Virus record (IMG/VR): IMGVR_UViG_3300033068_001747
Strand: one strand, 5' to 3'
DNA: 64,000 bases
Origin: a virus
Lineage: Duplodnaviria; Caudoviricetes
Each line of letters starts with the position of its first letter. The stretch's first letter is position 1. The notes below the pieces were generated by a model. It made no database searches. It was not told where the DNA came from and worked only from the letters and a program-made list of their open reading frames with translations. Below, one piece after another: positions 9,304-36,131 of the stretch. The position numbers and the translations under genes were made by a program.

Positions 9304-10560
9304 ATGAATGATAATTATAAATACGTAACTGTTATGTTTCCCTACCCTTCTGGTAGTGGATTGCATTGTGGACACTGGTACAATTATGCAATTATAGATA
9401 GTTACTGTAGATACTTGAGATATAAAGGTGAACAAGTTTTTCAACCATTTGGTTATGACTCATTTGGTTTACCTGCAGAAAACTACGCGAAAAAAGTGGG
9501 TAGAGACCCACGAGAAGTTACTTACGAAAATATAGAAAACTTTAGAGGACAGATGAAAAACATGGACACTCAATATGAGGAAATGTTGATTACTTCTGAT
9601 CCTAACTACATTGAATACACACAATGGTTGTTTAAACAATTGTATGATAAAGGATTGGCTTATAAAAAAGATGGTGAAGTTGACTTTTGTAATAGTTGTG
9701 AAACCGTATTGGCTAGAGAACAAGTAAAAGATGGTAAATGTGATAGATGTTCAAATGAAGTTGAAAAGAAAACATTGAACCAATGGTATTTTAAAATCAC
9801 TGATTATAAAGAAAGATTGATTGCAGGTTTGGACCATATAGATTTCCCTGAATCTACCAAGAAAGCTCAAAGAAATTGGTTGGAAAACCAACATGATTGG
9901 TGTGTATCAAGACAAAGAAGTTGGGGTTGTCCAATTCCAATTGAAGGAGAAACTGATACAATGGACACTTTTGTAGATAGTTCTATTTATACTATAATCT
10001 ATTGTATTATGAAAGGTATTAAACCTAAACCAGTTGACTTGTATGTTGGTGGTTCTGAACATGCTTGTATGCACTTGATCTATATTAGATTTATTACTAT
10101 GTTCTTGCATGACATTGGGTTTATTGACTTTGAAGAACCAATTACTAAATTGGTACATCAAGGTATGATTTTGAACCAAGGTGAGAAAATGTCTAAATCT
10201 AAAGATAATGTAGTTAGTTTGGATGGTTATGATTCTGATGAAATTAGATTTTATTTGATGTTTATTGGACATTACTTCGATGGTGGTTCTTGGTCAGATG
10301 AAAATATAATTGGTATTAGAAGATTTATAAATAGAATGAAAACTTGGTTGGATAAAACAGGTGAGGAAACTATTGATATAGAAGCTTTCAAAAAAACTAT
10401 ATTTGATTTTACAGATGCGTTTAAGTTTAACAAAGTAGTGAGTTCATTTATGATTTTGTTGAACCAAAATAAAAATAAAGCATTGACTCCAGAATGTAAA
10501 GAAGAATTGATTAAATTGATTGAGATCTATATGCCTGGTATTAGAGGAAAATTAAACTAA
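9304..10560 (+). CDS. leuS: Miniature leucyl-tRNA synthetase-like protein lacking the CP1 editing domain
   Basis: MFPYPSGSGLHCGH, GYDSFGLPAEN, zinc knuckle, QWYFKIT, DWCVSRQRSWGCPIP, DTMDTFVDSS, KMSKS; 418 aa. Confidence 0.85.
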   Translation: MNDNYKYVTVMFPYPSGSGLHCGHWYNYAIIDSYCRYLRYKGEQVFQPFGYDSFGLPAENYAKKVGRDPREVTYENIENFRGQMKNMDTQYEEMLITSDPNYIEYTQWLFKQLYDKGLAYKKDGEVDFCNSCETVLAREQVKDGKCDRCSNEVEKKTLNQWYFKITDYKERLIAGLDHIDFPESTKKAQRNWLENQHDWCVSRQRSWGCPIPIEGETDTMDTFVDSSIYTIIYCIMKGIKPKPVDLYVGGSEHACMHLIYIRFITMFLHDIGFIDFEEPITKLVHQGMILNQGEKMSKSKDNVVSLDGYDSDEIRFYLMFIGHYFDGGSWSDENIIGIRRFINRMKTWLDKTGEETIDIEAFKKTIFDFTDAFKFNKVVSSFMILLNQNKNKALTPECKEELIKLIEIYMPGIRGKLN

Positions 10561-17189: not shown

Positions 17190-18032
17190 ATGGTAACAAG
17201 AGTAGCACCCTCTCCAACTGGTTTTTTCCACTTAGGAACTTTAAGAACTGCACTACTTGCTTGGCTTCAAGCAAGAGCTAATAACGGTACATTCATTTTA
17301 AGAATTGATGATACCGATCAAGAAAGAAATAAACCAGAGTGGATTGATTATATCTACGAGCAAATGTCTGAGTTTGGTTTAGATCACGACATTACTTTCA
17401 GACAATCTGAGAGATTAGACCGTTACAGAGAAGTAGCTGAGAAAATCGGTACTAAAACTGAGAATGGTTACGAGTTAGATATGGGAGAGTACTCAATGGT
17501 TATTCTTAGAAATAACGGGTTCCCTACATATAACTTCTGTTCAATTTTAGATGATTATGACTATGATGTAACTAATATCATTAGAGGTGTTGACCACATT
17601 GCAAATGAGGCAAAACAACGTATTATCTGGGATAAGATTTGTGAAGTAGAAGGAGATAAAACATTTCCAGTAATTACACATGCTGGATTACTTTTCGACG
17701 GTAATGCTAAATTATCTAAGAGAAAAGGTAATGGTACAACAGAAGATTACAAAGATTACAGTAGAGCTGCTATCTTAAACTGGTTGGTTAAATTTGGTTG
17801 GTCACACCCAGATCCATTGTTTGATAAGAAACACCCTACTTTAAGTATAGACGAAATGATTGCTCTTTTCAACGAAGGAAACATTTCAGATAGAAACTGT
17901 AAAATCGATAAAGCTAAATTAGAGTTCCTAAATAAAAAATGGAAAGCAATTGAGAAAAGAGGTGGTGCAGGTTCAACAAAAGAAATCGTAGTTGAGTCAA
18001 AACTTTTAAAGTTTGACGAGTTTCAAAAATAA
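17190..18032 (+). CDS. Glutamyl-tRNA synthetase-like protein, catalytic domain only (GluQ-sized)
   Basis: RVAPSPTGFFHLG, LRIDDTD, QSER, IRGVDH, KLSKR; 280 aa, no anticodon-binding domain. Confidence 0.88.
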   Translation: MVTRVAPSPTGFFHLGTLRTALLAWLQARANNGTFILRIDDTDQERNKPEWIDYIYEQMSEFGLDHDITFRQSERLDRYREVAEKIGTKTENGYELDMGEYSMVILRNNGFPTYNFCSILDDYDYDVTNIIRGVDHIANEAKQRIIWDKICEVEGDKTFPVITHAGLLFDGNAKLSKRKGNGTTEDYKDYSRAAILNWLVKFGWSHPDPLFDKKHPTLSIDEMIALFNEGNISDRNCKIDKAKLEFLNKKWKAIEKRGGAGSTKEIVVESKLLKFDEFQK

Positions 18033-18066: not shown

Positions 18067-18532
18067 ATTTTTTATATCTTTCTAAATCAAATTTTCCATA
18101 AACACGTTTTTCATCTAAATAAATCTTTATATCATAAATTAGTATTTTATTCATACTATATTCATATGGAAGATTTCTACCCAACCAGTCTTTAAACTTG
18201 TCATCATTCATATCATAATACTTAGATTCAACGTCACCATCATTATCAAGTGATCTTAAATCCAATAAACTATTCTTTAAATAATATGTCTGTTCTAAAT
18301 AATGATAGAAAGGAATAATATAATCTTTTATATTATTCCAATGTAATGGTTTTTTAAATGAGACTTTAACGTAAGTACCATAAACATGACTATTGTTGGT
18401 ACAAACTAATGAAACATTATCATCATCAAGTAAATAAGCTAAATGTTGTTCACAAAAATCTTGAAACTCTTCCTTAAATTGTTGTTTCATTTCTTGTTGA
18501 CTCTTAGCTTCAAACAATTTAATATACTTCAT
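18065..18532 (-). CDS. Hypothetical protein, LAYLLD family, N-terminal motif MKYIKLFE
   Basis: Paralog motifs; TAATATATA upstream. Confidence 0.7.
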   Translation of the reverse strand: MKYIKLFEAKSQQEMKQQFKEEFQDFCEQHLAYLLDDDNVSLVCTNNSHVYGTYVKVSFKKPLHWNNIKDYIIPFYHYLEQTYYLKNSLLDLRSLDNDGDVESKYYDMNDDKFKDWLGRNLPYEYSMNKILIYDIKIYLDEKRVYGKFDLERYKK

Positions 18533-18580
18533 AGTGTATATATTATTTATTTTATATATATTTGTAAAAATTTAGAAATC

Positions 18581-19225
18581 ATGAGTAAGTATAACAGAAC
18601 ATATCATTTACCTTGGTCACCTGGAACTACCAGTGATGATAGAATATCTAATAGTGTCGAATCACTATTGGGTACAGAGATTGTTATTACTGAAAAGTTG
18701 GATGGTGAAAATTGCGGAATGACAGATGAAGGAGTTTATGCCAGAAGTCATGCTACCTTTACAACGTCTCCTTGGTCAAGAGAAGTAAGACAACTTCATA
18801 AAGTTAAAGTAGAGAATATGTTAGGAGAAGGAGTTCTCTTATTTGGAGAAAATATGGAAGGTATTCACTCAATTGAATATAGTAATCTTGAGTCATACTT
18901 TTATATTTTCGGTGTTAGAGATAATGAAATTTGGATCCCGTGGGAACAAGTTGAAGAGTATTCTTACTTATTAGATATACCTACTGTACCAGTTTTATTT
19001 AAAGGTGTTGTAAACACAGTTAAAGAATTACAAGAAATTGTCGAAGATTTAGTAAGTAAACCTTCTGAATTAGGTGGACAAAGAGAAGGTATCGTAGTAA
19101 GAAATGCAGGAATGTTTCACAATGACGACTTTGCAGATAACGTAATGAAATGGGTAAGAAAGGGACACGTTCAAACAGATGAACATTGGACTAGAAATTG
19201 GAAGAAAGCCGAAATAAAAAGATAA
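18581..19225 (+). CDS. ATP-dependent RNA ligase family protein
   Basis: TEKLDGEN (motif I), FGEN, EGIVVR, KWVR; start MSKY at 18581. Confidence 0.85.
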   Translation: MSKYNRTYHLPWSPGTTSDDRISNSVESLLGTEIVITEKLDGENCGMTDEGVYARSHATFTTSPWSREVRQLHKVKVENMLGEGVLLFGENMEGIHSIEYSNLESYFYIFGVRDNEIWIPWEQVEEYSYLLDIPTVPVLFKGVVNTVKELQEIVEDLVSKPSELGGQREGIVVRNAGMFHNDDFADNVMKWVRKGHVQTDEHWTRNWKKAEIKR

Positions 19226-20275: not shown

Positions 20276-21181
20276 ATGAAGACAAATCTAAAAATTAAAA
20301 TACTTATCGGAGTACCTGCTTCCGGCAAATCTACGTGGGCCAAAGATTTTGTAAAAGCAAATGATAATTGGACCAGAGTTAGTAGAGACGACTTTAGAGA
20401 AATGTTAAAAAACTCTGGAGTTGTGGAAAATAAAGTTGAAAATATAATCAATGAATTGGTTGATGCAACAATAGAACAATCATTACTTAAAAAAATGAAT
20501 GTTATTGTCGATAACACAAATTTAAAAGATAAATATATTCAAAACATTATTGAGAAGTTTAAGTATAGTGCCGATATAGACTATCAAGTCTTTGATATAT
20601 CAAAGGACAAAGCGATAGAAAGAGACAGACAAAGAGATAAGTCTGTAGGTCCAGTTGTTATCAATAAAATGTATAAAGAATATAAAATTCTTATGGATTC
20701 ATTTGACTTTCAACCTGTCAAAAAAATGACAAGACCTCACTTGACCCCAAATTTCAACTCACCTAAACAAGGTGCTGTTATATTTGACATCGATGGTACA
20801 CTTGCACTTATGGGTCGTAGAGGTCCATTTGATTGGATGCAAGTTTATAAAGACGATTTGAACGAAATTGTATCGGAACAGTTACAATTTCATAAAGATA
20901 AAGGTAGAAAAGTAATTATTGTAACTGGTCGTGACGAAGTTTGTCGAGAAGTTACCGAAGAATGGTTAGACTTTCACGGTATTCAGTTTGACGAAATGTA
21001 TATGAGACCAAAAGATGATTATAGAAAAGATACCTTAATTAAAAAAGAAATATACGAAAATCATATTAAGCCAAATTATAACTTACTTTGTGTTTATGAT
21101 GATAGATTAAGTGTAGTTAGAACTTGGAATGAATTAGGAGTATTTGTATTTAATGTAAATCAAGGAACACATCAATTTTAA
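20276..21181 (+). CDS. pseT: Polynucleotide 5'-kinase/3'-phosphatase (T4 PseT-like)
   Basis: GVPASGKST P-loop, RDDFR, HAD motif DIDGTL, VTGR, DDR. Confidence 0.92.
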   Translation: MKTNLKIKILIGVPASGKSTWAKDFVKANDNWTRVSRDDFREMLKNSGVVENKVENIINELVDATIEQSLLKKMNVIVDNTNLKDKYIQNIIEKFKYSADIDYQVFDISKDKAIERDRQRDKSVGPVVINKMYKEYKILMDSFDFQPVKKMTRPHLTPNFNSPKQGAVIFDIDGTLALMGRRGPFDWMQVYKDDLNEIVSEQLQFHKDKGRKVIIVTGRDEVCREVTEEWLDFHGIQFDEMYMRPKDDYRKDTLIKKEIYENHIKPNYNLLCVYDDRLSVVRTWNELGVFVFNVNQGTHQF

Positions 21182-21248
21182 AGTAAGCAGAGAACCTATC
21201 GCTGGAAACAGAGGAAGTTCGCGACTACAAAACCTCATTACATATATA
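21180..21248 (+). ncRNA. rnpB: RNase P RNA, 5' segment (5' strands of P1, P2, P4, P5, P6 plus P3)
   Basis: GAGGAAGTTCGCGA CR-I-like motif; CTG-GAAA-CAG P3; complementary to the 25030-25177 segment. Confidence 0.8.
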
Positions 21249-21296
21249 TTAAAACTTTTAAACATAAAATAAATATATATTTTAAATAATAAAACT

Positions 21297-21704
21297 ATGT
21301 TATTAACTAAAAGCGTTGAATATGCTATTAAATCACTCATACTAATCAATTATGATAGTAAAATAAATATCGAATATATTAGTTCTAAACTAGATATACC
21401 TAGAAGTTTCACATCAAAAATATTACAAGTACTTGTAAAAAAGGACTACATCTCTTCTAAAAGAGGCCCAGGTGGTGGTTTTGTAGTAAATGATTATTCA
21501 AAAACATTAAAAGATTTAATATGTGATATTGATCATAAATTTGATTATGATAAATGTGTTATGGGATTAAGTGGCTGCTCTGATGAGAATGCTTGTCCTT
21601 TACATGAAAATTTCAAAGAAATTAAAAATAAAATTTTAAACGAATTAATGATATTAAAAATATCAGATATTTGTAAAAATCCAAATAAAGTTTTAAAACT
21701 ATAA
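21297..21704 (+). CDS. Rrf2 family transcriptional regulator
   Basis: SVEYAI, SKRGPGGGF, C-terminal Cys cluster. Confidence 0.9.
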   Translation: MLLTKSVEYAIKSLILINYDSKINIEYISSKLDIPRSFTSKILQVLVKKDYISSKRGPGGGFVVNDYSKTLKDLICDIDHKFDYDKCVMGLSGCSDENACPLHENFKEIKNKILNELMILKISDICKNPNKVLKL

Positions 21705-21779
21705 GAATATTTTTTATATATATAATAATTGTAGATATGAATGTCTTTTTATCTACAATTAAAAAAATTATATAAAACT

Positions 21780-23558
21780 ATGTTTACAAAATTAGATGAA
21801 TTACAAAAAAAGGTTAAAAAGGATTTTATAAAGAATTATATAAACTCCAAGAATGCAGCAAGTGGATCATTATTTGATCCAAATTCAAATGTTACTTCTA
21901 AAAATATTGCAACTTTAGAAGCAGAATTAAACAAAGATATTAACATACAAGTTAATAGGTCTCTTATCTATTCTAAAATAGAAGAAAATTTTGGAACAGA
22001 AATGGCAGACTCATATATTAAAGACATTGAAGACCACTTAATATATGTTCATGATGAGACATCATTGAAGCCATATTGTGTGAGTATCTCAATGTATCCG
22101 TTGTTATTAAATGGTTTAAGTGGCTTAGGTGGTGAGTCGAAAGCACCTAAACACTTAGCAAGCTTTTGTGGTTCATTTATTAACCTTTTATTCTCAGTGT
22201 CATCACAGTTCGCTGGTGCAGTAGCTACTGTGGAATTCTTACTTTACTTTGACCACTTTGCAAGATTAGATTATGGAGATGACTACTTAACAACACATAA
22301 AAAAATAATAGAGAATGAGTTACAACATGTAGTTTATGCTATTAACCAACCTGCCGCGGCAAGAGGTTATCAATCAGTATTTTGGAATATATCTTTATAT
22401 GATATTGAATATTTTAATTCAATGTTTGGTGACTTTGTTTTTCCTGATATGGATAAACCAAACTATAGTAGCTTAGATAAACTACAGAAGTTTTTCATGA
22501 AATGGTTTAATAAAGAAAGGGAAAATGCGGTATTAACATTCCCTGTAATCACAGCAGCTATGTTGACTAAAGATAAAAAAGTATATGATGTTAACTTTGG
22601 TAACTTTTGTGCAGAAGAGTTAAGTGAAGGTAATTCATTCTTTATATATCAATCAGAAAGTGCAGATTCATTAGCATCTTGTTGCAGACTAAGAAATGAA
22701 ATATCTGATAATACTTTTAGCTACTCTCTTGGTGCTGGTGGTGTATCCACTGGTTCTATAAATGTGATAACTATTAATATGAATAGACTTATTCAAAAAG
22801 ATATTAGTCTAGATGATTTATTAGATAGAATATATAAATATCAAATGTCATACCGATATTTAATACAGGATTACTTAGATGCTAAGATGTTACCTGTTTA
22901 TGATTCTGGTTTTATATCAATTGATAAACAATTTCTAACAATAGGTATAAATGGTATGGTTGAATCCGCAGAATATCTTGGAATTGAAATATCAGATAAT
23001 GATAAATATAAAGACTATATCAATAGTAGATTGAAAACAATATATGATAAAAATAAATTAGCAAAGATTGAATATGGTTGCATGTTTAATACTGAATTCG
23101 TCCCTGCTGAAAATTTAGGAGTAAAAAATGCTAAGTGGGACAAAGAAGATGGTCTATTCGTAACAAGAGACTGTTATAACTCATACTTTTATATAGTTGA
23201 GGACGAGTCACAGAATGTAGTAGATAAATTCTTTTTACATGGAAATGATTATATAAAATATCTAGATGGTGGTAGTGCATATCATTGTAATTTAGAAGAT
23301 TATCCTACAAAAGAAGGATTCTTTAAGCTATTAAATGTATCAGCTTATACTGGTTGTAATTATTTTTGCTTTAATATAAAAGTAACAATATGTAATGATT
23401 GTGAACATATAAATAAAAAGACTGAATACCATTGTGTGAAATGTGACAGTAGAAATGTAGATCACGCTACAAGAATAATAGGATATCTTAAAAGAATAAC
23501 TAGCTTCAGTAAAGATAGACAAAAAGAAGCAGCAAAAAGATATTACAATCAAAAATGA
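21780..23558 (+). CDS. nrdD: Anaerobic ribonucleoside-triphosphate reductase (class III)
   Basis: IYVHD, SCCRL, PAENL, CxxC...CxxC, TRIIGYL glycyl-radical motif. Confidence 0.93.
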   Translation: MFTKLDELQKKVKKDFIKNYINSKNAASGSLFDPNSNVTSKNIATLEAELNKDINIQVNRSLIYSKIEENFGTEMADSYIKDIEDHLIYVHDETSLKPYCVSISMYPLLLNGLSGLGGESKAPKHLASFCGSFINLLFSVSSQFAGAVATVEFLLYFDHFARLDYGDDYLTTHKKIIENELQHVVYAINQPAAARGYQSVFWNISLYDIEYFNSMFGDFVFPDMDKPNYSSLDKLQKFFMKWFNKERENAVLTFPVITAAMLTKDKKVYDVNFGNFCAEELSEGNSFFIYQSESADSLASCCRLRNEISDNTFSYSLGAGGVSTGSINVITINMNRLIQKDISLDDLLDRIYKYQMSYRYLIQDYLDAKMLPVYDSGFISIDKQFLTIGINGMVESAEYLGIEISDNDKYKDYINSRLKTIYDKNKLAKIEYGCMFNTEFVPAENLGVKNAKWDKEDGLFVTRDCYNSYFYIVEDESQNVVDKFFLHGNDYIKYLDGGSAYHCNLEDYPTKEGFFKLLNVSAYTGCNYFCFNIKVTICNDCEHINKKTEYHCVKCDSRNVDHATRIIGYLKRITSFSKDRQKEAAKRYYNQK

Positions 23559-24007
23559 GATTTAAAGAATATAATATAGTATTCCAAGAGATACCTAATG
23601 AGGTATCTCTTTGTTTCTCTATAACAGGTTGTAACCTAAGGTGTGATGGTTGTCACTCACCATTTTTATGGAAAATTAATAGCGGTGATTTATTAACAAT
23701 AGATGTATTAAATACACTTTTAAAAAAATATGATAAGATTATATCTTGTGTTCTTTTTATGGGTGGAGAATGGCACACTAAAGAGTTTATTAAAACATTA
23801 TCTTATATTAGAAGCATGGGTATAAAAACCGCTTTATATACAGGGTTAGAACTTGATGATGTTAGTGTGGATATTAGAAATAATTTAGACTATTTAAAGT
23901 TTGGACCTTGGATAAAAGAATTAGGTGGACTTCAATCAAAGACAACAAATCAAAAATTATTAAATATAAATAATGATGAGTGTTTAAATCACTATTTTAT
24001 TAAATAA
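23555..24007 (+). CDS. nrdG: Anaerobic RNR activase (radical SAM)
   Basis: GCNLRCDGCHS; adjacent to nrdD. Confidence 0.92.
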   Translation: MRFKEYNIVFQEIPNEVSLCFSITGCNLRCDGCHSPFLWKINSGDLLTIDVLNTLLKKYDKIISCVLFMGGEWHTKEFIKTLSYIRSMGIKTALYTGLELDDVSVDIRNNLDYLKFGPWIKELGGLQSKTTNQKLLNINNDECLNHYFIK

Positions 24008-24258
24008 ACTTTTTCAATATTAGATTATTTAAAGATTAAAATATAAATTAAATTATGACTTTTATAAATATCAGAAATTATTAACCACACTTATAATATG
24101 ATTCAAAGGATTTTGAACGATTAATGATGTTAGGAATAATCCAAATGGATTAGGTGGACAAGCTATGACAAGAACATAAACAATATTTTAAACATGAATA
24201 TTCTTTTATTCTAAAAGAAAAAATAACAATAGAGAGAACAACAAATGAATAAGATTTT

Positions 24259-24480
24259 ATGAAAGTAGTTTGTATAAAAAAATACCTATCTACCAATTTA
24301 AGATATGAACTTACTTATGGTAAAATATATGAAACTCTACCTAAGTTTCCTAATGATTTAGAAGATGATTATAGAATAGAGTGTGATAGAGGTTTTATAG
24401 AATTTTATAGTAAAGATACATTTATAACTTTAGAAGATTGGAGAGAACAACAAATAAATAAAATTGTAAATGAATATTAG
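24259..24480 (+). CDS. Small protein, V-x-CIK...LT-x-GK-x-Y family, C-terminal tag WREQQINKIV
   Basis: Similar to 26805, 59258 and 60715 ORFs. Confidence 0.65.
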   Translation: MKVVCIKKYLSTNLRYELTYGKIYETLPKFPNDLEDDYRIECDRGFIEFYSKDTFITLEDWREQQINKIVNEY

Positions 24481-24751
24481 ATGTATATTTGGACATAAAT
24501 GGGAACTTTCTAAAATAGAAAGAGAGATTGAATATAACTTACCTAAGCTTGGTAAAAAAGGTGCTTGGAATGGTTCAGGTAGAAAGGTTATTATGACTAC
24601 TTCTGATGATATTAGAATATGTAAAAGATGTTATAAGAAACAAAAGGCAATGTATAGTCCATTTAGTCATGTTAGAATTGCAGATTGGAGGAATGATGAA
24701 CTCAGTAAAGATGAACTTAGAGATAAAAAATTAAAAGAATTAGGTATATGA
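24470..24751 (+). CDS. Small zinc-binding protein, C-terminal tag LRDKKLKELGI
   Basis: CIFGHKW...CKRC. Confidence 0.65.
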   Translation: MNIRCIFGHKWELSKIEREIEYNLPKLGKKGAWNGSGRKVIMTTSDDIRICKRCYKKQKAMYSPFSHVRIADWRNDELSKDELRDKKLKELGI

Positions 24752-25014
24752 GTCTTAAATTAATAGCCAAAAAAACACATATTGTACGTAAAAACATTCA
24801 AGGTAATGGTAAAACTAGCCATATTATTGAAAAAGGTCAAATATTTACCATCTTTGTCAAACATATTACAAAGTATGACAAAGATGGTGAATTGGTGACT
24901 GTTTGTATATACCATATAAAAGATGGTTGGATTATAAATTTTAAAAACTTTACAACAAAGGAGAAATATACTGCAATCAAAAGACAACATATATTAGATC
25001 AAATATTAGGTTAA
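24748..25014 (+). CDS. Hypothetical protein, C-terminal tag KRQHILDQIL
   Basis: ORF track. Confidence 0.6.
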   Translation: MSLKLIAKKTHIVRKNIQGNGKTSHIIEKGQIFTIFVKHITKYDKDGELVTVCIYHIKDGWIINFKNFTTKEKYTAIKRQHILDQILG

Positions 25015-25029
25015 TAAATAAATAAAAAT

Positions 25030-25177
25030 TATATTTGTAACTTAGGAGACTAACGTCGTTTGTACTAAGGAAGTAGCAAGTCAAACAGTTCGAGGGTGTC
25101 GGTTTCCCTATGAGAATGGGTTGATGCAAAGATAAATGATAGGATAGAACAAAATCGCGGCTAAGCTCACTTACTTT
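25030..25177 (+). ncRNA. rnpB: RNase P RNA, 3' segment (P9-like hairpin, P15-P17, CR-IV, CR-V; no P18)
   Basis: GTAGCAAG, AGATAAATGAT and ACAAAATCGCGGCTAA match bacterial rnpB conserved regions; pairs with the 21180 segment. Confidence 0.8.
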
Positions 25178-26318: not shown

Positions 26319-26789
26319 ATGAAAAAAATATTTACAATATTATTATTACTTTTATCTCTTACAAGTGGAGCACAAGAGGTTAAAAGTAGAACTGAAATTA
26401 TAACTGCTCCTGTACTTATCTGTTCTACACCTGAAAGAGATAAATGGTTTGCGATTGTTCCAAGTTTTGAGAAATTAGAAGGGTTTATTGTAAAAACCTA
26501 TTTAACTACATTAAAGTTGAATATAGGTACTTGTAGTAAAGATGATGCTCTTGTATTTATATTCACAGATGGTAGAAAAATTAAAATAAATGCCAATAAT
26601 GAAAAAAGATGTGATGGTATAGTTGAAGTAAAATTTACATTAAACGCAATTGACGTAGCTTTTCTAGAAACAAAAACACTACAATCCATAAGATACATAA
26701 ATGGTAATGATTCTGTATCATTTTTATATTCCTCAACTAAAGAAGATTGTAACTATTTCGTAAATACATTTGGTACATATAAAAGATAG
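26319..26789 (+). CDS. Secreted hypothetical protein
   Basis: Signal peptide. Confidence 0.65.
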   Translation: MKKIFTILLLLLSLTSGAQEVKSRTEIITAPVLICSTPERDKWFAIVPSFEKLEGFIVKTYLTTLKLNIGTCSKDDALVFIFTDGRKIKINANNEKRCDGIVEVKFTLNAIDVAFLETKTLQSIRYINGNDSVSFLYSSTKEDCNYFVNTFGTYKR

Positions 26790-26804
26790 TATTATCTTTG
26801 CCTT

Positions 26805-27059
26805 ATGAAATTAGAAAAAGGTACAAAAGTAAAATGTATTAGAAATACATTCAATGGTTCTTATCGTCATGGTGAGATTGCTTTCCCTTATTTAACAGTT
26901 GGTAAAACTTATACTGTTGTGATGGATTTTGGACCTACACTTGCTATGATAGCTGATAATGGACACGGTTTATCTCTTGGAAAAGATTTATTTATAACAT
27001 TAGAAGATTATAGAGAAAAACAAATTGAAAAAATTTTTAAAAAAGATTTGGTAGATTAA
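26805..27059 (+). CDS. Small protein, VKCI...LTVGKTY family, C-terminal tag YREKQIEKIF
   Basis: Paralog of 24259 ORF. Confidence 0.65.
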   Translation: MKLEKGTKVKCIRNTFNGSYRHGEIAFPYLTVGKTYTVVMDFGPTLAMIADNGHGLSLGKDLFITLEDYREKQIEKIFKKDLVD

Positions 27060-27097
27060 AAAAGTCACCGTATCTTTGTCAAAGAAATAAAATAAGG

Positions 27098-27180
27098 GCT
27101 TACAAGAGTAGTAGCTATTGGAAAAGTAAATCCTCTTATCATTGATAATGAAACTTTATGTTGGCGGTGGTATTGTAAGC
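27098..27180 (+). ncRNA. Candidate small RNA with terminal stem
   Basis: Directly after a promoter repeat; GCTTACAA/TTGTAAGC terminal complementarity; no ORF. Confidence 0.45.
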
Positions 27181-27268
27181 AATTAAATTTTCATAGAAAT
27201 TTTGAAAAATAATTGAAAAAAGATTTGGTAGATTAAAAAAGTCACCGTATCTTTGTCAAACAAAATAA

Positions 27269-27355
27269 GGGAAGATATACAAGTCTGGTCAAAGTAGGCT
27301 ACCGGTGAGGTAGTCGGTTTTATATCTTCGAGCGGTTCGAATCCCTCTCTTCCCA
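27269..27355 (+). tRNA. Atypical tRNA with long variable region and non-canonical anticodon loop
   Basis: GGGAAGA/TCTTCCC + A; GGCTACC-GGTGA-GGTAGTC arm; GGTTCGAATCC. Confidence 0.65.
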
Positions 27356-27535
27356 CAAAAAAAATTTTAAAAAAGATTTGGTAGATTAAAGAATACTCCT
27401 TATCTTTGTCAAACAAAATACGAGTTATGAGTTGTGGCTCGAAGATTAAACCAAAACTCAAAAAAAATTAAAAAAAGTTAAAAAAGATTTGGTAGATTAA
27501 AAAAGTCTTCTTATCTTTGTCAAACAAAATAAAAA

Positions 27536-27619
27536 TGTGTGTTACCGGAGTTATGAGTTAGAATACAACTTGTAAGTATAGACGGGCTGCTGATGAAGTT
27601 GGTCCGCTCCCTAACCACA
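27536..27619 (+). ncRNA. Candidate structured small RNA
   Basis: After a promoter repeat; TGTG..GTTA..GGAG / CTCC.TAAC.CACA closing helix with internal hairpins. Confidence 0.45.
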
Positions 27620-27627
27620 AAAAATCT

Positions 27628-27738
27628 GGTCTGTTCGTCTAGCGGATGTCACTTCGGTGATAGGACGACACTTCTACGCTTAAATGTGCCCTGGTATATG
27701 GAGAGGTGTAAACAAAGGTTCGAATCCTTTACAGACTA
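27628..27738 (+). tRNA. tRNA-Glu-like RNA copy 1 (D-loop hairpin, 26-nt anticodon-loop expansion)
   Basis: GGTCTGT/ACAGACT acceptor; TCAC-TTCG-GTGA in D-loop; ACACTTCT/AGAGGTGT stem. Confidence 0.75.
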
Positions 27739-27858
27739 CAAAAAAAAATGAAAAAAGATTTGGTAGATTAAAAAAGTCTTCGTATCTTTGTCAAACAAAA
27801 TAAGAGTAGGTGTCTTGTGAAATTCTTGACTTCTTGGTGTACGATAGCACAACTCTTC

Positions 27859-27945
27859 GGTCTGTTCGTCTAGCGGTGTCACTTCGGTGACTAGGACAAC
27901 TTCCCTTTCAGGAAGGAAACGCGGGTTCGAATCCCGTACAGACTA
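27859..27945 (+). tRNA. tRNA-Glu-like RNA copy 2 (UUC in a 6-nt loop)
   Basis: Same body; CTTCC-CTTTCA-GGAAG anticodon arm. Confidence 0.8.
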
Positions 27946-28007
27946 CTGCTTTAATGGAATTTTAAGCTTGAGTTTTGTGATGGAACTCTTTAAAGAACTA
28001 TCACATC

Positions 28008-28096
28008 GGTCTGTTCGTCTAGCGGTTCACTTCGGTGATAGGACAACTTTTCAGTGAGTGATGAAGTAAACGCGGGTTCGAATCCCGTACAGACTA
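28008..28096 (+). tRNA. tRNA-Glu-like RNA copy 3 (extended anticodon arm, loop GTGAG)
   Basis: Same body; ACTTTTCA-GTGAG-TGATGAAGT arm. Confidence 0.75.
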
Positions 28097-28161
28097 CAAA
28101 TAAAATATAGGTGGTTACACGCCAGTAATGGTGTGTGTATCAAAGAGGTAAGCCACTTATC

Positions 28162-28249
28162 GGTCTGTTCGTCTAGCGGATGTCACTTCGGTGACTAGGA
28201 CATCTTCTCTTCGGAGTTGGGAACGCAGGTTCGAATCCTGTACAGACTA
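28162..28249 (+). tRNA. tRNA-Glu-like RNA copy 4 (anticodon loop replaced by a cUUCGg tetraloop)
   Basis: Same body; CTC-TTCG-GAG. Confidence 0.75.
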
Positions 28250-28266
28250 CAACAAATAAAACATAT

Positions 28267-28339
28267 CGCGGGATAGAGCAGTAGGCAGCTCGCAAGGCTC
28301 ATAACCTTGAGGTCACAGGTTCGAGTCCTGTTCCCGCTA
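28267..28339 (+). tRNA. tRNA-fMet (CAU)
   Basis: C1:U72 mismatch, CAAGG-CTCATAA-CCTTG, canonical D and T arms. Confidence 0.9.
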
Positions 28340-28421
28340 CTAAGTGTAAATGTCATTCTGTAATGTTGACAAGTTGGTACTTTTAGTATCCATCTTTAGT
28401 GTAATTAAAACACGACACTTC

Positions 28422-28534
28422 GGTCTGTTCGTCTAGTGGACGTTTACTGAACACAAAGCTTCGGCATTAAAGTAAAGTAAACAGGACTTCTCCCTTAGAA
28501 GGAGACAACGCGGGTTCGAATCCCGTACAGACTA
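28422..28534 (+). tRNA. tRNA-Glu-like RNA copy 5 with UAG (Leu) anticodon and ~40-nt D-loop insertion
   Basis: Same acceptor and T arm; TCTCC-CTTAGAA-GGAGA; GTTTACT...AGTAAAC inserted helix. Confidence 0.75.
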
Positions 28535-28554
28535 CAATGCTTGGTCGCCAGGTA

Positions 28555-28631
28555 GTTACATAGTTTAACTAAAACACGAAGTATCGCCTTGTTTGCGGTG
28601 AAGGATGTGAGTGTAAAATCTCGCTGTAACA
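28555..28631 (+). ncRNA. Degenerate tRNA-like structure
   Basis: GTTACA/TGTAAC + A; GTGAG-TGTAAAAT-CTCGC T-like arm. Confidence 0.4.
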
Positions 28632-28649
28632 CAAAAAAGTAAAAATAAT

Positions 28650-28720
28650 TTTGGTAGTTTAAACAACTTTTATTATCTTTGCTCTATAATAAAGACAAAA
28701 AGATTACGTTCTTTGAAAAT
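28650..28720 (+). promoter_or_regulatory. Bacteroidota-type promoter plus boxA-like antitermination element
   Basis: TTTG...TATCTTTG followed by GTTCTTTGAAAA. Confidence 0.6.
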
Positions 28721-29560
28721 ATTGTATTATCCAACTAGTCACTTCGGTGGTTAGTAAAATGATAATCGGCGGTGTATCGTCGTTAAATAAACTACGAAAG
28801 TAGGATAAAGTGGAATCAACGTTAAATGGTTCTGCGGCTCGTAAGAGCTCGAGTACACAAGTGGGATATCCAACGTCCTGATTAACCGAGGGCTTACGCT
28901 GTAGGTGAAATGGAATTTGGACTTGGCAATGTGGATTGTCGAGTTGATGTGGGAACACCAATAAGAATAACCCATAGGAACTCTGTAAGAAAGGTAGCTC
29001 CAACTATCTGATTGCGGGTTCCAATATAAAAGGCAACTTAAAACCGAAAGGTAAGGTAGAGAACAGGTGGTGCTGCTACTATCCCTACTAAATGTCTACC
29101 AAGACGTTAGTTTGAAGTTTTCTTGAAGTATGGAGGCTGGGAGGCTTCACGAAGGAGTTTAGTATTTCGTTGTTCAAAAGATAACGAAGCTTACGACAGA
29201 CCACTTCTTCGACACATCCACGAACACAAAAGCAATTTACATTTGAAGTAAAATTTAAACATAAAAAGCGAAAGTGTCTGTCAGGTTTCAACGAAAGTTG
29301 ACTACATACTTAGGAGCTGTTCCTAGGACGTCAAGACCGCAAGTTAAGACGTATTCTTGCCAAAAACCTCTAAGGGGTCGAACCCTTAATCAGACCGCAA
29401 GTTTGAAGAGAGTTGAGTAATAAGAGAGTAGTTGAAACCTCAAGAAGTGATTAGTCTAACTAATCGTCAATGAGAATTACAATCCAAAAGATTGTGGATA
29501 CGAAGAGAAACAATAATTCTTCAAAAGATTCTTACAAGATGGCATAATCTCAGCCTATTA
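28720..29560 (+). ncRNA. Large (~850 nt) structured ncRNA, GOLLD-like candidate
   Basis: Raised GC; no credible ORF; many GNRA/UUCG-capped hairpins; follows a tRNA cluster and boxA; terminator after. Confidence 0.65.
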
Positions 29561-29587
29561 TTTCTAAACAACAAAACACGTGAAACA

Positions 29588-29622
29588 AAAACCCTTTACT
29601 ATTGACAGTAAGGGGCTTTTTT
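29588..29622 (+). terminator. Intrinsic terminator after the large ncRNA
   Basis: ccctttact-attgac-agtaagggg followed by a T tract. Confidence 0.65.
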
Positions 29623-29692
29623 ATTTATAAAAATTATTTTAAACTTTTTCTACTCTGAGACTATAAGTCATGAACTAAAAATAATTTAAAAT

Positions 29693-30557
29693 ATGAAAAA
29701 ACTTCTAACTTTGGTTGCCTTACTAATGACAACAATCTTGTTTAGTCAAAACATCACACAATGGAACTTTGACAATATAAACCCAGCAAATGCAATGTTA
29801 CCTACTACAGGTACAGGAACTTTTACCACAATTGGCGGTGTTGTAGACAACCTTACTACAAATTTAATGCCAGCCGGAAATCCTTCAAGTGGTAAAGCGT
29901 ATAGTATTAAAACTTTCCCAACAACAGGAACATTATCAGGAACTGCAGGATTCCAATTTAATGTTAGTACATTAGGATATAATGACCTAATAAATGTCAC
30001 TTTTGATCCAAGAGGATCAGACACATCATCAAGATTTCAACAATATGAATATAGTATTGATGGAGGTACAACCTGGACTATACTAAGTAATAATGGTGGT
30101 ACATTAACGAACTCATTTACTACAACTCCAATGGTAACTTTAACTATGCCCACTAATGCAAGTAATCAGTCAGGATTTGCATTTAGAATTGTATCAATTT
30201 TTAATCCAATTGGGACTGATTATCTAGCAGGTAGGACCAACATCTACATATAGTACAGGTGGTGCTTGGAGAATCGACAACTTCACCGTTTCAAATGGCT
30301 CTTTAGTACTATCTACTAATCAAAATACTAAAATGGGTTTAATCGTTTACCCTAACCCAGTAAACAATGGCTTACTAAACATTCAAACAACTGATAACTC
30401 AGTTAAGAATGTTGTAGTTTATGATCTATTAGGAAAACAAGTACTTAGTACTTCAACTTCTAATACTGTTAACGTTTCTTCTTTAAAACCTGGTGTTTAC
30501 ACTATGAAAATAACAGAAGAAGATAATACAGGTGTAATGAAAATAGTTATTAACTAA
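29693..30557 (+). pseudogene. T9SS type A sorting-domain secreted protein, split by a +1 frameshift near 30230
   Basis: Signal peptide; frame resumes as VGPTSTYSTGGAWRIDNF...YPNPV (T9SS CTD) if one G is removed from GCAGGTAGG. Confidence 0.75.
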
Positions 30558-30582: not shown

Positions 30583-33105
30583 ATGAGGAAATTATTATTA
30601 ATTCTAATCGGACTTTTTAGTATGACGGTATCAGCTCAAACTAAAGAGAAAGTAGAGGACCAAACTACTAAAAAAGACTCGGTCGAAAATGTTAAAGAAC
30701 TACAAGAAGTTGTAGTTGTAGGTAGAGGAGTTATTGACCTAGCAAAAGAAAGAAAAACTCCTATTGCGGTTTCAACAGTAAAAGCGGTTGAAATACAAGC
30801 AAAAGTTGGTACAGCAGACGTTACACAAGCTTTGGTAAACACACCATCTGTTTATGTTGCAGGACAAGCTGGAGGTTTTGGTGACTCAAGAATCTCAGTT
30901 CGTGGGTTCCAACAAGACAATACTGCTTTCCTATTAAATGGTCAACCAATCAATGGTATGGAAGATGGTAAGATGTACTGGTCTAACTGGTCGGGTATGT
31001 CAGATATTGCAAATGCAATACAAATTCAAAGAGGTTTAGGTTCTTCTAAACTAGCAATCTCATCAGTCGGTGGTACAGTAAACTTTATTACAAGAGCAAC
31101 TGATATGAGACAAGGTGGATTTTCATCAGCAGGTGTTGCTAATGATGATTATTTAAAAACAACAGTTGGATATAATACAGGTATTATGGAAAACGGTTTC
31201 GGTGCAAGTGTTATGTTATCACATTGGCAAGGTGATGGTTATTTTGATGGAACAAAAGGTCAAGGTCAAAACTACTTTATCTCATTCGGTTATAAACCAA
31301 ATGCAAAACATAACTTTAACTTCTTAATTACTGGTGCACCACAGCAACACGATCAAAACTTCACAAAAAAGATTTCTGATTACTTAGGTTTCGGCAGAAG
31401 ATATAATAACAATTACGGTTATTTGAATGGTCAATATATATCAGAAAGAGTGAATTTTTATCATAAACCAGTTGCAAACTTTAACTGGGATTATAAAATA
31501 AACGATAAGCTAGACTTATCAACAGTTCTTTATGCATCTTGGGGTAGAGGTGGAGGAACTGGTAACTACGGTAGTGGGAAGAAAAGTGTTTCTCAATTAA
31601 ATCCTTATACAGGTCAAATGCAAAACACTTATATTGATTTTAATCAGATTTATGCTAATAACTCAGCAGATGCTGATGGTATTGGATCTAGTTCAAATTA
31701 TGCAATTAGATCATCTATGAATAATCATGAGTGGTATGGTATTGTGTCAAACTTAAAAAATAAGTTGAATGATAATTTAACATTAAACTTAGGAGTTGAT
31801 TTAAGAACATATAATGGTGATCACTATAGACAAATTACTAATTTTATGGGGTTAAATGGATGGACTGAAAGTAGATTTTTAAGAGATAATAATCATGTTA
31901 TTCCTAACCCAAATACATTACCAAGTGCAACCATTACAGTTAATCAATCATTTAGTACTAACCCGTGGTCTGCATTCTTTAATAAAGCAGATGATAGTCA
32001 AAAAATTGACTATGACTACAGTGAAACAATTTCTTACGGTGGAGTCTTTGGACAATTAGAGTATTCTAAAGATAACTTCTCAACTTTCTTTCAAGGAGCA
32101 GTTTCTAATCAAACACACCAAAGATTTGACTACTATGACTATCAAAAAGAATTTCAAAATTCTGAAAAAGTTTCTAATGTAGGATATAATGTAAAAGGTG
32201 GTGCCGCATATAACTTCAATGAAAAACACGTTGTTTATGGAAATGCTGGATATTACTCAAGACAACCATATCATGATAACATTTACTTAAACTTTACTAA
32301 CCAAGTAAACCCATTAACACAAAACGAGAAAGTTTTAGGACTAGAAGCTGGTTATACATTCAAATCAAAAGTTTTTACTACTAGCATAAACGCTTATAGA
32401 ACAACTTGGGAAGATAGAGTCGTAACTACATCAAATGTTCAATCTACAAATGGAGTTATTGGAACTACACCAGTTTCTGTAGGTGATGTCATCTTCACAT
32501 CCAATCAAGGTGTTAGACAAATTCATTCTGGTGTTGAGTTAGACTTTATATTAAAACCTGTTGCTAAATTAGATATTAAAGGATTTGCATCAGTTGGAAA
32601 CTGGGAATATAGTGGAAGTGCTACTAGTAGAAAATTTGATGAAAACTTAAATTTACTAACTGAAGCTGAAACAAATTTAGATGGTGGAAAAGTAGGTGAT
32701 GCTGCTCAAACAACTTGGGGATTAGGTGCTAAATATGAATTGTTAACAAGATTCTCTATTGATGCTGATTGGAGAAACTATGATAATTTATATGCAAATG
32801 TAGTTGCTAAAGATAACTTACAGTTACCTTCTTATGACTTAGTAGATATGGGTATATCATATAAAATGTTAGTAGGTAAAGACAAACAAAATTCTGTAAA
32901 CTTTAGATTAAATGTAAATAACTTATTTGATGAAGTTTATTTATCTGAGTTAACTTCTAATATTAAAACTGATGCATTTATCAGTGGAAACTCAGGACCT
33001 ACATATCAATCTGCAGGTAGAGTTTACAAAGGAATCGCTGATGGAAACCAAGGTTTCTTTGGATTTGGAAGAACTTGGAACTTAACATTAAGATATAATT
33101 TCTAA
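30583..33105 (+). CDS. TonB-dependent receptor
   Basis: Signal peptide, plug (TPSVY, VRGFQQ, QRGLGSS...GGTVN), C-terminal YNF. Confidence 0.93.
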   Translation: MRKLLLILIGLFSMTVSAQTKEKVEDQTTKKDSVENVKELQEVVVVGRGVIDLAKERKTPIAVSTVKAVEIQAKVGTADVTQALVNTPSVYVAGQAGGFGDSRISVRGFQQDNTAFLLNGQPINGMEDGKMYWSNWSGMSDIANAIQIQRGLGSSKLAISSVGGTVNFITRATDMRQGGFSSAGVANDDYLKTTVGYNTGIMENGFGASVMLSHWQGDGYFDGTKGQGQNYFISFGYKPNAKHNFNFLITGAPQQHDQNFTKKISDYLGFGRRYNNNYGYLNGQYISERVNFYHKPVANFNWDYKINDKLDLSTVLYASWGRGGGTGNYGSGKKSVSQLNPYTGQMQNTYIDFNQIYANNSADADGIGSSSNYAIRSSMNNHEWYGIVSNLKNKLNDNLTLNLGVDLRTYNGDHYRQITNFMGLNGWTESRFLRDNNHVIPNPNTLPSATITVNQSFSTNPWSAFFNKADDSQKIDYDYSETISYGGVFGQLEYSKDNFSTFFQGAVSNQTHQRFDYYDYQKEFQNSEKVSNVGYNVKGGAAYNFNEKHVVYGNAGYYSRQPYHDNIYLNFTNQVNPLTQNEKVLGLEAGYTFKSKVFTTSINAYRTTWEDRVVTTSNVQSTNGVIGTTPVSVGDVIFTSNQGVRQIHSGVELDFILKPVAKLDIKGFASVGNWEYSGSATSRKFDENLNLLTEAETNLDGGKVGDAAQTTWGLGAKYELLTRFSIDADWRNYDNLYANVVAKDNLQLPSYDLVDMGISYKMLVGKDKQNSVNFRLNVNNLFDEVYLSELTSNIKTDAFISGNSGPTYQSAGRVYKGIADGNQGFFGFGRTWNLTLRYNF

Positions 33106-33854: not shown

Positions 33855-34100
33855 ATGGAACAAAAAGAACTTAACTACGGAATTATGCCAGGAGAAACTT
33901 GGCGACACTACAAAGGTGGTAACTACAAAATTATCACTCTAGCAAATCATACTGAAACTAAAGAACCTTTAGTTATTTATCAATCTATATCATTTGGATC
34001 AATCTATGCAAGACCTTTATCAATCTGGTGTGATACCGTTGAAAATAGAAGAGGTGGTTTGGAACCAAGATTTGTAAAAGTTGAAAGTGAAAATGAGTAA
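33855..34100 (+). CDS. DUF1653 family protein
   Basis: WRHYKGGNY...A.HTET.E.LVIY...YARPL. Confidence 0.85.
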   Translation: MEQKELNYGIMPGETWRHYKGGNYKIITLANHTETKEPLVIYQSISFGSIYARPLSIWCDTVENRRGGLEPRFVKVESENE

Positions 34101-35373
34101 GATAGATTTATTACTAGGTCTTCAATGGGGAGACGAAGGAAAAGGAAAAATTGTAGATGTTATTACATCAAAATATGACATAGTTGCAAGATTTCAAGGT
34201 GGTCCAAATGCTGGACATACAATCTACTTTGATGGTAGAAAACATGTTTTAAGAACTATACCATCAGGTGTATTCAATAAAAATACAATAAATATAATTG
34301 GTAATGGTGTTGTACTTGATCCAGTTGTATTTAAACAAGAAGTTGAAGAACTACTTAAATTTGATAAAACTATTAAAGATAGATTACTTATCTCAAGAAA
34401 AGCTCATCTTATTTTTCCAACACACAAACTTTTAGATGCTACATCAGAAGCAGCCAAAGGTAAAGATAAAATTGGCTCTACTCTTAAAGGTATTGGACCT
34501 ACTTATATGGACAAAACTGGTAGAAATGGTATCAGAGTTGGCGATTTAGAATTACCAGACTTCCATAAAAGATTTGCTAAGTTAGAAAAGAAACATGATG
34601 AACTAATTGATTGGGGTGTTATTGAACAATTTAACACTAACTATGATGATATGCAAGATGAATTTTTAGATGCAATTACTTATCTAAAACAATTTACATT
34701 TATCGATAGTGAAGAATATCTATTTCAAGCTCAACAACAAGGAAAATCAATTCTTTGTGAAGGAGCTCAAGGTTCTTTATTAGATGTTGACTTTGGTACT
34801 TATCCATTTGTTACTTCTTCTAATACAACTGCCGCAGGAGCTTGTACTGGTTTAGGAATTGCCCCTAATAAAATACAAGATGTGTTTGGTATATTTAAAG
34901 CATACACAACAAGAGTTGGTAGTGGTCCATTTCCAACTGAATTGTTTGATGAAACAGGTGAGAAAATGGCTAAAATTGGTAATGAATTTGGATCTGTTAC
35001 TGGTAGAGCAAGAAGATGTGGTTGGTTAGATTTAGTTGCGTTAAAATACACTTGTCAAATTAATGGTGTAACTGAACTAATGATGATGAAAGCAGACGTA
35101 CTATCAGGATTTGACAATATAAAGGTTTGTATAGGTTATAAATATAAAGGTGAAGTAATTACTCACTTTCCTTATAACATTGAACCAGAGAACTTAGAAC
35201 CTATCTATTTAGGGTTTAGTGGTTGGTCAGAAGACTTAACTGGAATTACAGATTATAAGGATTTACCAGATGAACTAAAAGAATATATAGAGTTTATTGA
35301 AAAAGAAACAGGAATAAATATAACACTTGTTTCTGTGGGTCCAGATAGAAAACAAACAATAAGAAAAAATTAG
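34093..35373 (+). CDS. purA: Adenylosuccinate synthetase
   Basis: GLQWGDEGKGK, GGPNAGHT, EGAQG, TRVGSGPFPTE, RRCGWLD. Confidence 0.97.
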   Translation: MSKIDLLLGLQWGDEGKGKIVDVITSKYDIVARFQGGPNAGHTIYFDGRKHVLRTIPSGVFNKNTINIIGNGVVLDPVVFKQEVEELLKFDKTIKDRLLISRKAHLIFPTHKLLDATSEAAKGKDKIGSTLKGIGPTYMDKTGRNGIRVGDLELPDFHKRFAKLEKKHDELIDWGVIEQFNTNYDDMQDEFLDAITYLKQFTFIDSEEYLFQAQQQGKSILCEGAQGSLLDVDFGTYPFVTSSNTTAAGACTGLGIAPNKIQDVFGIFKAYTTRVGSGPFPTELFDETGEKMAKIGNEFGSVTGRARRCGWLDLVALKYTCQINGVTELMMMKADVLSGFDNIKVCIGYKYKGEVITHFPYNIEPENLEPIYLGFSGWSEDLTGITDYKDLPDELKEYIEFIEKETGINITLVSVGPDRKQTIRKN

Positions 35374-35450: not shown

Positions 35451-35495
35451 TATCTGGGCTATAAAACTATGTACAAAAAATTAAAACTAAAAACA

Positions 35496-36131
35496 ATGGA
35501 AATTAAATTAAAAAATACCTATAAAGGAACAAGAATAATATTTGCTGAAACTGCAAAAAGAAAAAGAACTATTTTGAACCAAATGATTGAAATACTTGAA
35601 TCATATGGTTACCAAGAAATGATGATTCCTGTCATTCAATTATCTGATACATTTGCTAAAAAAGTTGGTGAAGAAAACAATAACATGATGTACACTTTTA
35701 CTGATAGAGGTAATAGAGACATCTGTTTAGCACCAGAATATACTGCTGTTGTGCAACAACTTGCAAATGAAACATTCAAAATGACTAAAGATGTAAAACT
35801 CTTTTACATTGGAGAATGTTTTAGAGGCGAAAGACCTCAGGCATCAAGATGGAGACAATTTACACAATTTGGTGTTGAAGTAATCAATCCAAGAAAAGAT
35901 TACACAGATGAATTGTTAGAAATAGCAAAGAAACTTATTGAAATAGTCACAGATAACTATGAAGTTAATTTAGATGCAACTAGAGGACTTGACTACTATA
36001 CTGGTGGTAAAGGATTTGAGATTTCTTGTCCACAATTAGGTGCAGCCAAACAAATTTGCGGAGGTGGCTCTTATCAAGGAGGAGTGGGACTGGCTATAGG
36101 TGTGGATAGATTACTGAATTGTAACCAATAA
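35496..36131 (+). CDS. Histidyl-tRNA synthetase-like protein, catalytic core only
   Basis: LAPEYTA, FRGERPQ..RWRQFTQFGVE, RGLDYYTG, GGGSY, G.AIGVDRL; ends right after motif 3. Confidence 0.85.
   Translation: MEIKLKNTYKGTRIIFAETAKRKRTILNQMIEILESYGYQEMMIPVIQLSDTFAKKVGEENNNMMYTFTDRGNRDICLAPEYTAVVQQLANETFKMTKDVKLFYIGECFRGERPQASRWRQFTQFGVEVINPRKDYTDELLEIAKKLIEIVTDNYEVNLDATRGLDYYTGGKGFEISCPQLGAAKQICGGGSYQGGVGLAIGVDRLLNCNQ

Follow-up and report, generated by a model that had tools for sequence, protein, structure and literature searches.

Near the middle of a large phage sequence lies a GC-elevated stretch that sits in a tRNA island and seems to encode no protein. What is made from this locus, and how does the phage have it made? 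The sequence, which we call the window, is a stretch of 64,000 nucleotides from the IMG/VR virus record IMGVR_UViG_3300033068_001747. The original prediction, read from the letters without database searches, had seen here a highly structured RNA of about 850 nt, and had named GOLLD as an unverified candidate. GOLLD is among the largest non-coding RNAs of bacteria and phages, and its structure as a 14-mer cage is known. Both GOLLD and ROOL are phage-borne RNAs that form cages, and the GOLLD cage is free of protein and built from 14 copies (PMC12286853). Here, we show that the window carries an ordinary, complete new member of the known GOLLD family, which as an identification is routine. The one feature of the locus that we did not find in print is that its clade places a boxA-like word, which by its sequence is that of the rRNA operons of the host phylum, before GOLLD. 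Within the searchable literature library, we found no paper that links GOLLD RNA with boxA.

A covariance-model scan of the whole window matches the Rfam GOLLD family (RF02032, gathering cut-off 150 bits) to positions 29150-29556 on the plus strand with 324 bits (E = 5e-92). All model positions (1-416 of 416) are covered without truncation and only two non-canonical pairs are flagged. This is one of three matches at gathering threshold in the whole window, the other two being tRNAs. A permissive scan of 27500-30000 (E up to 1) gave, besides GOLLD, tRNA matches only and added one weak tRNA-like hit, and the models for ROOL, tmRNA, group I/II introns and RNase P remained below threshold in the GOLLD stretch. 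Since the full model is matched and the other RNA models are silent, the first guess was right. The predicted coordinates and size also hold. Between the first letter of GTTCTTTGA (28708) and the last position matched by Rfam (29556) there are 849 nt, with the terminator reaching to 29625. The stretch lies inside a 2.6-kb gap without genes (27060-29692), and its elevated GC content, likewise noticed before, amounts to 0.40-0.445 compared to 0.25-0.33 in the flanks. We consider it very likely that 28650-29625 on the plus strand is a complete, stand-alone GOLLD RNA gene of a large phage with a Bacteroidota host.

The Rfam model describes only the conserved 3' region of GOLLD, and the 5' half of the RNA (28767-29149) lies outside of it. 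The published GOLLD alignment (Kretsch supplement), which already includes hits on Flavobacteriia and Bacteroides contigs, spans the 3' region only and hence is of no use for the 5' domain. The reference for this part is env-38 (JCVI_SCAF_1096627009515/1239-410), which was solved by cryo-EM as a D7 14-mer cage (PMC12286853) and whose construct sequence is found in Supplementary Table 4 of Kretsch et al., Nature 2025 (PMC12286853). The window interval 28762-29556 (795 nt) is the counterpart of the 830-nt env-38 interval. A CAATAAGAATAAC-CATAG segment is common to the window, env-38 and 73 IMG/VR contigs. Because 101 bases are identical between the first 152 nt of env-38 and window positions 28762-28925 (66%; alignment A3), the hairpins are alike and env-38 also contains CAATAAGAATAACTCATAG, the 5' half of the window RNA, with its roughly 21 helices and an invariant CCAATAAGAATAAC segment, is by sequence of the env-38 'cap' domain type.

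Relatives of the whole RNA are found mostly on IMG/VR contigs. The 20-nt word CCAATAAGAATAACNCATAG, taken from the 5' half, occurs in 73 viral contigs of IMG/VR, which reach lengths of up to 483 kb; full-length homologues are present in 58 of them, of which 29 are unique, with identities of 65-91%. The nearest relatives are 89-91% identical to the window copy and their differences preserve pairing. In the phage record collection, the single relative of the whole stretch belongs to the uncultured 635-kb phage LR745206, which aligns from GTTCTTTGAAA onward and has a GOLLD match of its own with 287 bits. A search for the 5' motif in 185,579 species genomes returned 15 hits, compared to about 17 expected by chance (an estimate for an 18-base word), and only two of them, both on short MAG contigs (L080 and L083), are true GOLLD RNAs. 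Thus, the clade of the window GOLLD is not a common prophage passenger.

The locus has the parts of a delimited transcription unit, and all three of the predicted elements, promoter, boxA and terminator, were located. The promoter (28650-28681, plus strand) is composed of TTTGGTAG, 16 nt and TATCTTTG; its -33 TTTG and -7 TAnnTTTG boxes have a form that we take to be the Bacteroidota sigma-A type. The pattern TTTGGTAG-N16-TANNTTTG has seven matches, all on the plus strand between 26769 and 28681, where 0.06 would be expected, and the GOLLD promoter is the seventh copy of this promoter-like cassette. In relatives with a promoter of their own, about 26 nt separate the -7 box from the boxA word, which is also the spacing in the window. 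Transcription would start near 28687-28690. Six more TTTGGTAG-N16-TA..TTTG cassettes are located at 26769-27790; five are near-identical over about 45 nt, and each of the six precedes a different short non-coding segment. At the other end, a terminator scan finds an intrinsic terminator at 29592-29625 (plus strand), with a 9-bp stem and a 6-nt loop followed by CTTTTTTATT. Its hairpin and T-run are kept in the two closest relatives (L062 and L032), while other relatives use a different terminator or let GOLLD run directly into a tRNA.

The promoter is separated from the 5' domain by a leader of about 55 nt that is not part of the published env-38 construct and that holds a boxA-like word and a hairpin, P0. 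The boxA-like sequence of the original prediction, GTTCTTTGAAAA, is located at 28708-28719 on the plus strand. GTTCTTTGAAA covers 28708-28718, and the leader word written as GTTCTTTGAAAATATTG extends to 28724. Taken as an 11-mer the word has six near-matches in the window compared to 7.3 expected, which is chance level, and its significance therefore rests on conservation in relatives. GTTCTT[TA][GA][AC] is present in the leaders of 29 of the 30 aligned relatives, no matter whether a promoter or a tRNA is the upstream neighbour. In these relatives the word usually follows a small covarying hairpin at a distance of 4-5 nt. Such a boxB-like hairpin is absent in the window, where only an A-rich segment separates the -7 box from boxA, but it is present in most relatives and in rRNA spacers. 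The functional boxA consensus GYTCTTTAANA, which is gamma-proteobacterial, agrees with GTTCTTTGAAA in 10 of 11 positions and is matched exactly in the relatives L020 and L023 (consensus from PMC5725501).

A closely similar word exists in rRNA operons of the Bacteroidota class that contains Aquimarina. The 16S-23S spacer of Aquimarina longa contains a hairpin and then GTTCATTGACATATTG, and GTTCWTTGAMATATT is found in 26 of 61 sampled genomes that belong to the same class as this bacterium, compared to two hits for the reversed control. Among 20 sites of GTTCWTTGAMATATT that were examined, ten lie between tRNA-Ala and 23S, 55-115 nt before the 23S gene and each with a preceding hairpin; one is inside a tRNA array and nine have no RNA gene nearby. 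The spacer layout in these ten rRNA operons is a hairpin and then GTTC(T/A)TTGACATATT. The window word has the GTTC-TTGA core in common with the spacer 15-mer and matches all of it except for one inserted A. The clade of the relatives L020, L023, L034, L036, L058 and L065 has a boxA word that reads GTTCTTTAA... and is nearer to the E. coli form. To see if this form follows another rRNA boxA variant of Bacteroidota, we searched 61 genomes of the phylum with a degenerate pattern, which was no commoner than the reversed control. In a genome of Aquimarina's class, the boxA 15-mer GTTCATTGACATATT is located between two tRNA genes of an array (L110, about 1418-1856), and hence the word is not restricted to rRNA operons in these bacteria. 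Outside of the clade the picture is different. The core YTCYTTDA was not found in about 1.6 kb upstream of the GOLLD 3' region in the Vibrio phages PG07 and VspSw_1 and the Caulobacter phage phiCbK, and therefore the boxA leader is a trait of the window's clade and not of GOLLD generally.

The second element of the leader, P0 (28726-28766, plus strand), has an ATTATC/GATAAT closing stem and an inner stem of 28734-28742 with 28747-28755 around a UUCG loop (28743-28746). A hairpin at this position is found in the individual folds of all 30 leaders, with inner stems and lengths that vary. Most leaders close it by TTATC/GATAA; closing stems of other sequence are found in a divergent clade and in the LR745206 group. 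The original prediction had pointed to a TCAC-TTCG-GTG hairpin in common with D-loop inserts of the nearby tRNA-like genes. The hairpin exists (CAC-UUCG-GUG, 28740-28749), but a special link to the inserts is unsupported, as the relatives carry other stems at this place. What the two have in common is a generic cUUCGg cap, here placed on a hairpin that varies, and hence no sign of kinship. The leader as a whole is not required for assembly, because the cage-forming env-38 construct begins after it, and therefore a role of the leader in transcription or processing is favoured over a structural one.

We propose the following sequence of events. The host RNA polymerase would start at the TTTG/TATCTTTG promoter. 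After about 20 nt of RNA, the boxA-like GTTCTTTGAAA would recruit host NusB-S10 along with NusA and NusG, in the manner of rRNA operons. Loading of the Nus factors would allow the 0.9-kb untranslated RNA to be made without Rho-dependent termination, perhaps with help in co-transcriptional folding, and the intrinsic terminator would end transcription. The Nus machinery acts as a folding chaperone for rRNA. No Nus-factor gene was found among the larger ORFs of the window that were scanned against Pfam or PHROGs. The likeness to the rrn antitermination leader, with its boxB, boxA and boxC and the factors NusB-S10, NusA, NusG and SuhB, includes the boxA word itself, its place about 20 nt after the probable start of a long, structured and untranslated RNA, and the small hairpin shortly before it in most GOLLD relatives. 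There are also distinct differences, since the cargo is a phage RNA and not rRNA, the window lacks the preceding hairpin, and the element in the window is a putative boxA as judged by its sequence. Nus-type antitermination during GOLLD transcription is what such a leader would predict, and the earlier description 'expressed like an rRNA' may be appropriate in this sense. We give a probability of about 0.5 to the reading that, in these Bacteroidota lake phages, GOLLD is made by an rRNA-type, Nus-modified host polymerase recruited by the leader boxA, which would protect the transcript from Rho and might supply a folding chaperone that enables cage assembly.

The most serious alternative accepts the RNA as GOLLD and sees in GTTCTTTGAAA a processing or folding signal that is also found in rRNA spacers, instead of a Nus-binding boxA. 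The word might be cut by a ribonuclease to release GOLLD from tRNAs upstream of it, or it might form transient pairs with GOLLD while the RNA folds. Excision is indeed needed in several relatives in which GOLLD abuts a tRNA, but conservation of the word is just as high in those with a separate GOLLD promoter, where there is nothing to cut off. That rRNA spacers are processing regions too, and that the word occurs in the bacterial tRNA array of L110, would suit a processing signal. Such a signal would not be expected to fit the functional boxA consensus as closely as the window word and its exact counterparts in L020 and L023 do, nor to come after a small hairpin in the way boxA follows boxB in rrn leaders. 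For transient pairing, the covariation scan offers a weak complementarity of UCUUUG to 28887-28892; this match within GOLLD consists mostly of G-U pairs and is unconvincing as a partner of the boxA word. Taken together, we hold a processing or folding signal to be rather unlikely, and the Nus-modified polymerase remains our preferred reading.

The covariation check confirms a conserved structure of the RNA. RNAalifold on the 30-sequence alignment (A2) gives a consensus fold of the whole RNA with 181 pairs, 132 of which show compensatory changes, and the single-sequence fold of the window copy has z = -4.1 compared to 20 shuffles. For the 5' part, including the hairpin 29150-29211, the 30 sequences support 24 helices with 120 predicted pairs; 97.9% of the alignment cells are paired, and 85 of the pairs are compensatory. 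None of 500 shuffles reached any of five measures, and when the partners were slid by 1-3 columns pairing fell to 38-43%. The hairpin 29150-29211 (plus strand; loop UCAAAAG), the first of the Rfam-modelled region, corresponds to helices 22-24 and contributes 20 pairs, 14 of them compensatory. It is followed by an A-rich variable linker without an inserted tRNA (29212-29275), which is unpaired in the Rfam consensus and poorly conserved in alignment A2, and then by the conserved 3' core (29276-29556), for which both the RF02032 match and covariation speak. The 3' helices, including the long-range helix of 29283-29292 with 29431-29440, covary in the 30 sequences and the Rfam structure line is satisfied.

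A scan for covarying antiparallel runs added four long-range helices: 28772-28777 with 28853-28858, 28931-28935 with 29217-29221, 29195-29201 with 29276-29282, which closes the A-rich linker, and 29297-29302 with 29466-29471, a pseudoknot in the 3' core. Jointly they reach 99.3% pairing; 16 of their 24 pairs are compensatory, and in slid controls pairing is 21-48%. These statistics carry some selection bias, as the helices were picked by the scan itself. In the cage, any of the four could conceivably form between chains. The tetraloop hairpins listed in the original prediction are largely real, five of six being helices with compensatory changes: CTAC-GAAA-GTAG (28792-28803), GCTC-GTAA-GAGC (28836-28849), ACC-GAAA-GGT (29043-29052) and the two copies of GACC-GCAA-GTT (29335-29345 and 29393-29403). 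The sixth, TCAAC-GAAA-GTTGA, was rejected as a hairpin. Its letters are strands of two long-range helices, with GGTTTCAAC (29283-29292) pairing with 29431-29440 and GTTGAC (29297-29302) with 29466-29471.

These data bear on the idea that the stretch is a decayed, non-functional GOLLD relic that sits passively in the tRNA island. We regard this as very improbable. The Rfam model is matched in full, the window copy retains every 5' helix, even the closest relatives differ only in ways that keep pairing, and promoter and terminator are both in place. The absence of a credible ORF, as predicted, holds as well. No plus-strand ORF of at least 60 aa is present in the GOLLD stretch, and the minus-strand ORFs of 99, 74 and 67 aa are not conserved, because the relatives carry 1-12 stops and out-of-frame length variation in these regions. 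That the stretch is no GOLLD at all, being instead a ROOL, a group I/II intron, a tmRNA, an RNase P RNA, a minus-strand coding region or the 5' UTR of the gene at 29693, can practically be dismissed: these minus-strand ORFs and a gene start 68 nt past the terminator would be in its favour, but the ORFs are broken in relatives, the other Rfam families are silent in 27500-30000 apart from tRNAs, the terminator stands between the RNA and the gene that follows, and the downstream neighbour in relatives is a tRNA or unrelated sequence.

What the finished RNA may become can be judged from env-38. The GOLLD RNA would fold into two domains, a cap from its 5' part and a ring from its 3' part, with the A-rich linker between them, and by homology to env-38 14 copies would then assemble into a hollow D7 cage through kissing loops and A-minor contacts. 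One such kissing loop may be the L21a-equivalent hairpin (29372-29387, plus strand), whose loop GUCGAA (29377-29382) contains the palindrome UCGA (29378-29381); the assignment to L21a is made by position in the Rfam model and not by residue-level alignment to the structure. The centre of this loop is always self-complementary; of the 30 sequences, 17 have CG, 10 have GC and 3 have AU. The window has CG, in contrast to the GC of the Rfam GOLLD consensus, and a GC/CG switch at L21a has been described for bridge B8, the symmetric kissing contact between chains (PMC12286853). With env-38 the window copy shares the full 3' region, the 5' domain type, the A-rich linker and a self-complementary L21a loop, and both are phage-borne and lie in a tRNA island with a tRNA-Met neighbour. 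The linker of env-38 is disordered and located inside the cage (PMC12286853). Unlike env-38, the window copy has no tRNA inserted in its linker and possesses its own promoter and terminator and a conserved leader of about 55 nt beyond the published construct. The cage has been seen for env-38, whereas the window copy is known from sequence, and by this analogy assembly of the window GOLLD into a 14-mer cage is probable. ROOL is likewise a large ornate phage-encoded RNA that occurs near tRNA islands and forms an RNA-only cage (PMC12286853), but its sequence and fold are unrelated and no ROOL match exists in the window.

The genomic neighbourhood gives further hints on host and context. Around GOLLD, Pfam and PHROGs identify a polynucleotide kinase, an RNA ligase, NrdD/NrdG, a homing endonuclease, a ClpB-like ATPase and a PiT transporter, and the window also encodes two TonB-dependent receptors, a T9SS sorting domain (Por_Secre_tail) and four truncated aaRS-like ORFs. 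Three features, namely the T9SS tail, the type of promoter and the form of the boxA word, speak for a host among the Bacteroidota. The sorting domain is a separate 74-aa ORF (30333-30557) that follows an ORF with an apparent signal peptide (29693-30253), and the two may be one gene split by a frameshift. One TonB-dependent receptor is encoded at 30583-33105 and the second, 20 kb away, at 51359-53416, which are host-envelope-type genes on a phage. An adenylosuccinate synthetase at 34081-35373 (Pfam E = 5e-171) has as best PHROG phrog_1211, labelled '2-aminooxy adenylosuccinate synthetase', and its product might be either a common PurA or a PurZ as in phages with 2-aminoadenine (Z-base) DNA. No RNase P family was matched at gathering threshold when the whole window, including 21180-25177, was scanned with Rfam, although a gene in two pieces might be missed in this way.

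Functions related to tRNA are prominent in the same region. A tRNA-Met (28267-28340, plus strand; called by ARAGORN and Rfam) lies upstream of GOLLD in the same tRNA island, and tRNA-Met adjoins GOLLD in most relatives and in env-38. In the clade of L020, L023, L034, L036, L058 and L065 the order is phage tmRNA, tRNA-Met, GOLLD, and in L020, L034, L036 and L065 an array of 17-21 tRNAs, all on one strand, comes after GOLLD. The window further contains five tRNA-Glu-like genes at 27628-28534 that have the acceptor stem GGTCTGT/ACAGACT and the T arm in common. Each has a UUCG hairpin inserted in the D-loop, and the anticodon arms are aberrant or differ from one another. None of the five is called by ARAGORN, and one scores 26 bits with Rfam. 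In the LR745206 relative a similar tRNA-Glu-like gene with an insert lies directly after GOLLD (L001, about 3860-3960). The four aaRS-like ORFs are of a class II D/K/N type (317 aa, 1725-2678), a class I Met/Leu type (418 aa, 9304-10560), a Glu/Gln catalytic-domain type (280 aa, 17190-18032) and a HisRS-like type (220 aa, 35469-36131). All are much shorter than the cellular enzymes, and the GluRS-like one is notable beside a tRNA-Glu-like array. RNA ligase and polynucleotide kinase are the usual tRNA-repair pair of phages, and here they are encoded near each other, at 18443-19225 and 20276-21181, in the same region as the tRNA island.

The tRNA island, the tRNA-like RNAs, the aaRS-like genes, the RNA ligase and the polynucleotide kinase together point to a role of the cage that is linked to translation during infection. 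The GOLLD family gains with this locus a clean member of full length, encoded by a very large phage of Bacteroidota in a transcription unit that is delimited at both ends. If the leader word works as a boxA, GOLLD output would be tied to the stable-RNA transcription machinery of the host, which may open a route to its function. If GOLLD is indeed made by a Nus-modified polymerase, this would be the first mechanistic handle on its production, and mutations in boxA would provide a simple genetic lever on GOLLD function.
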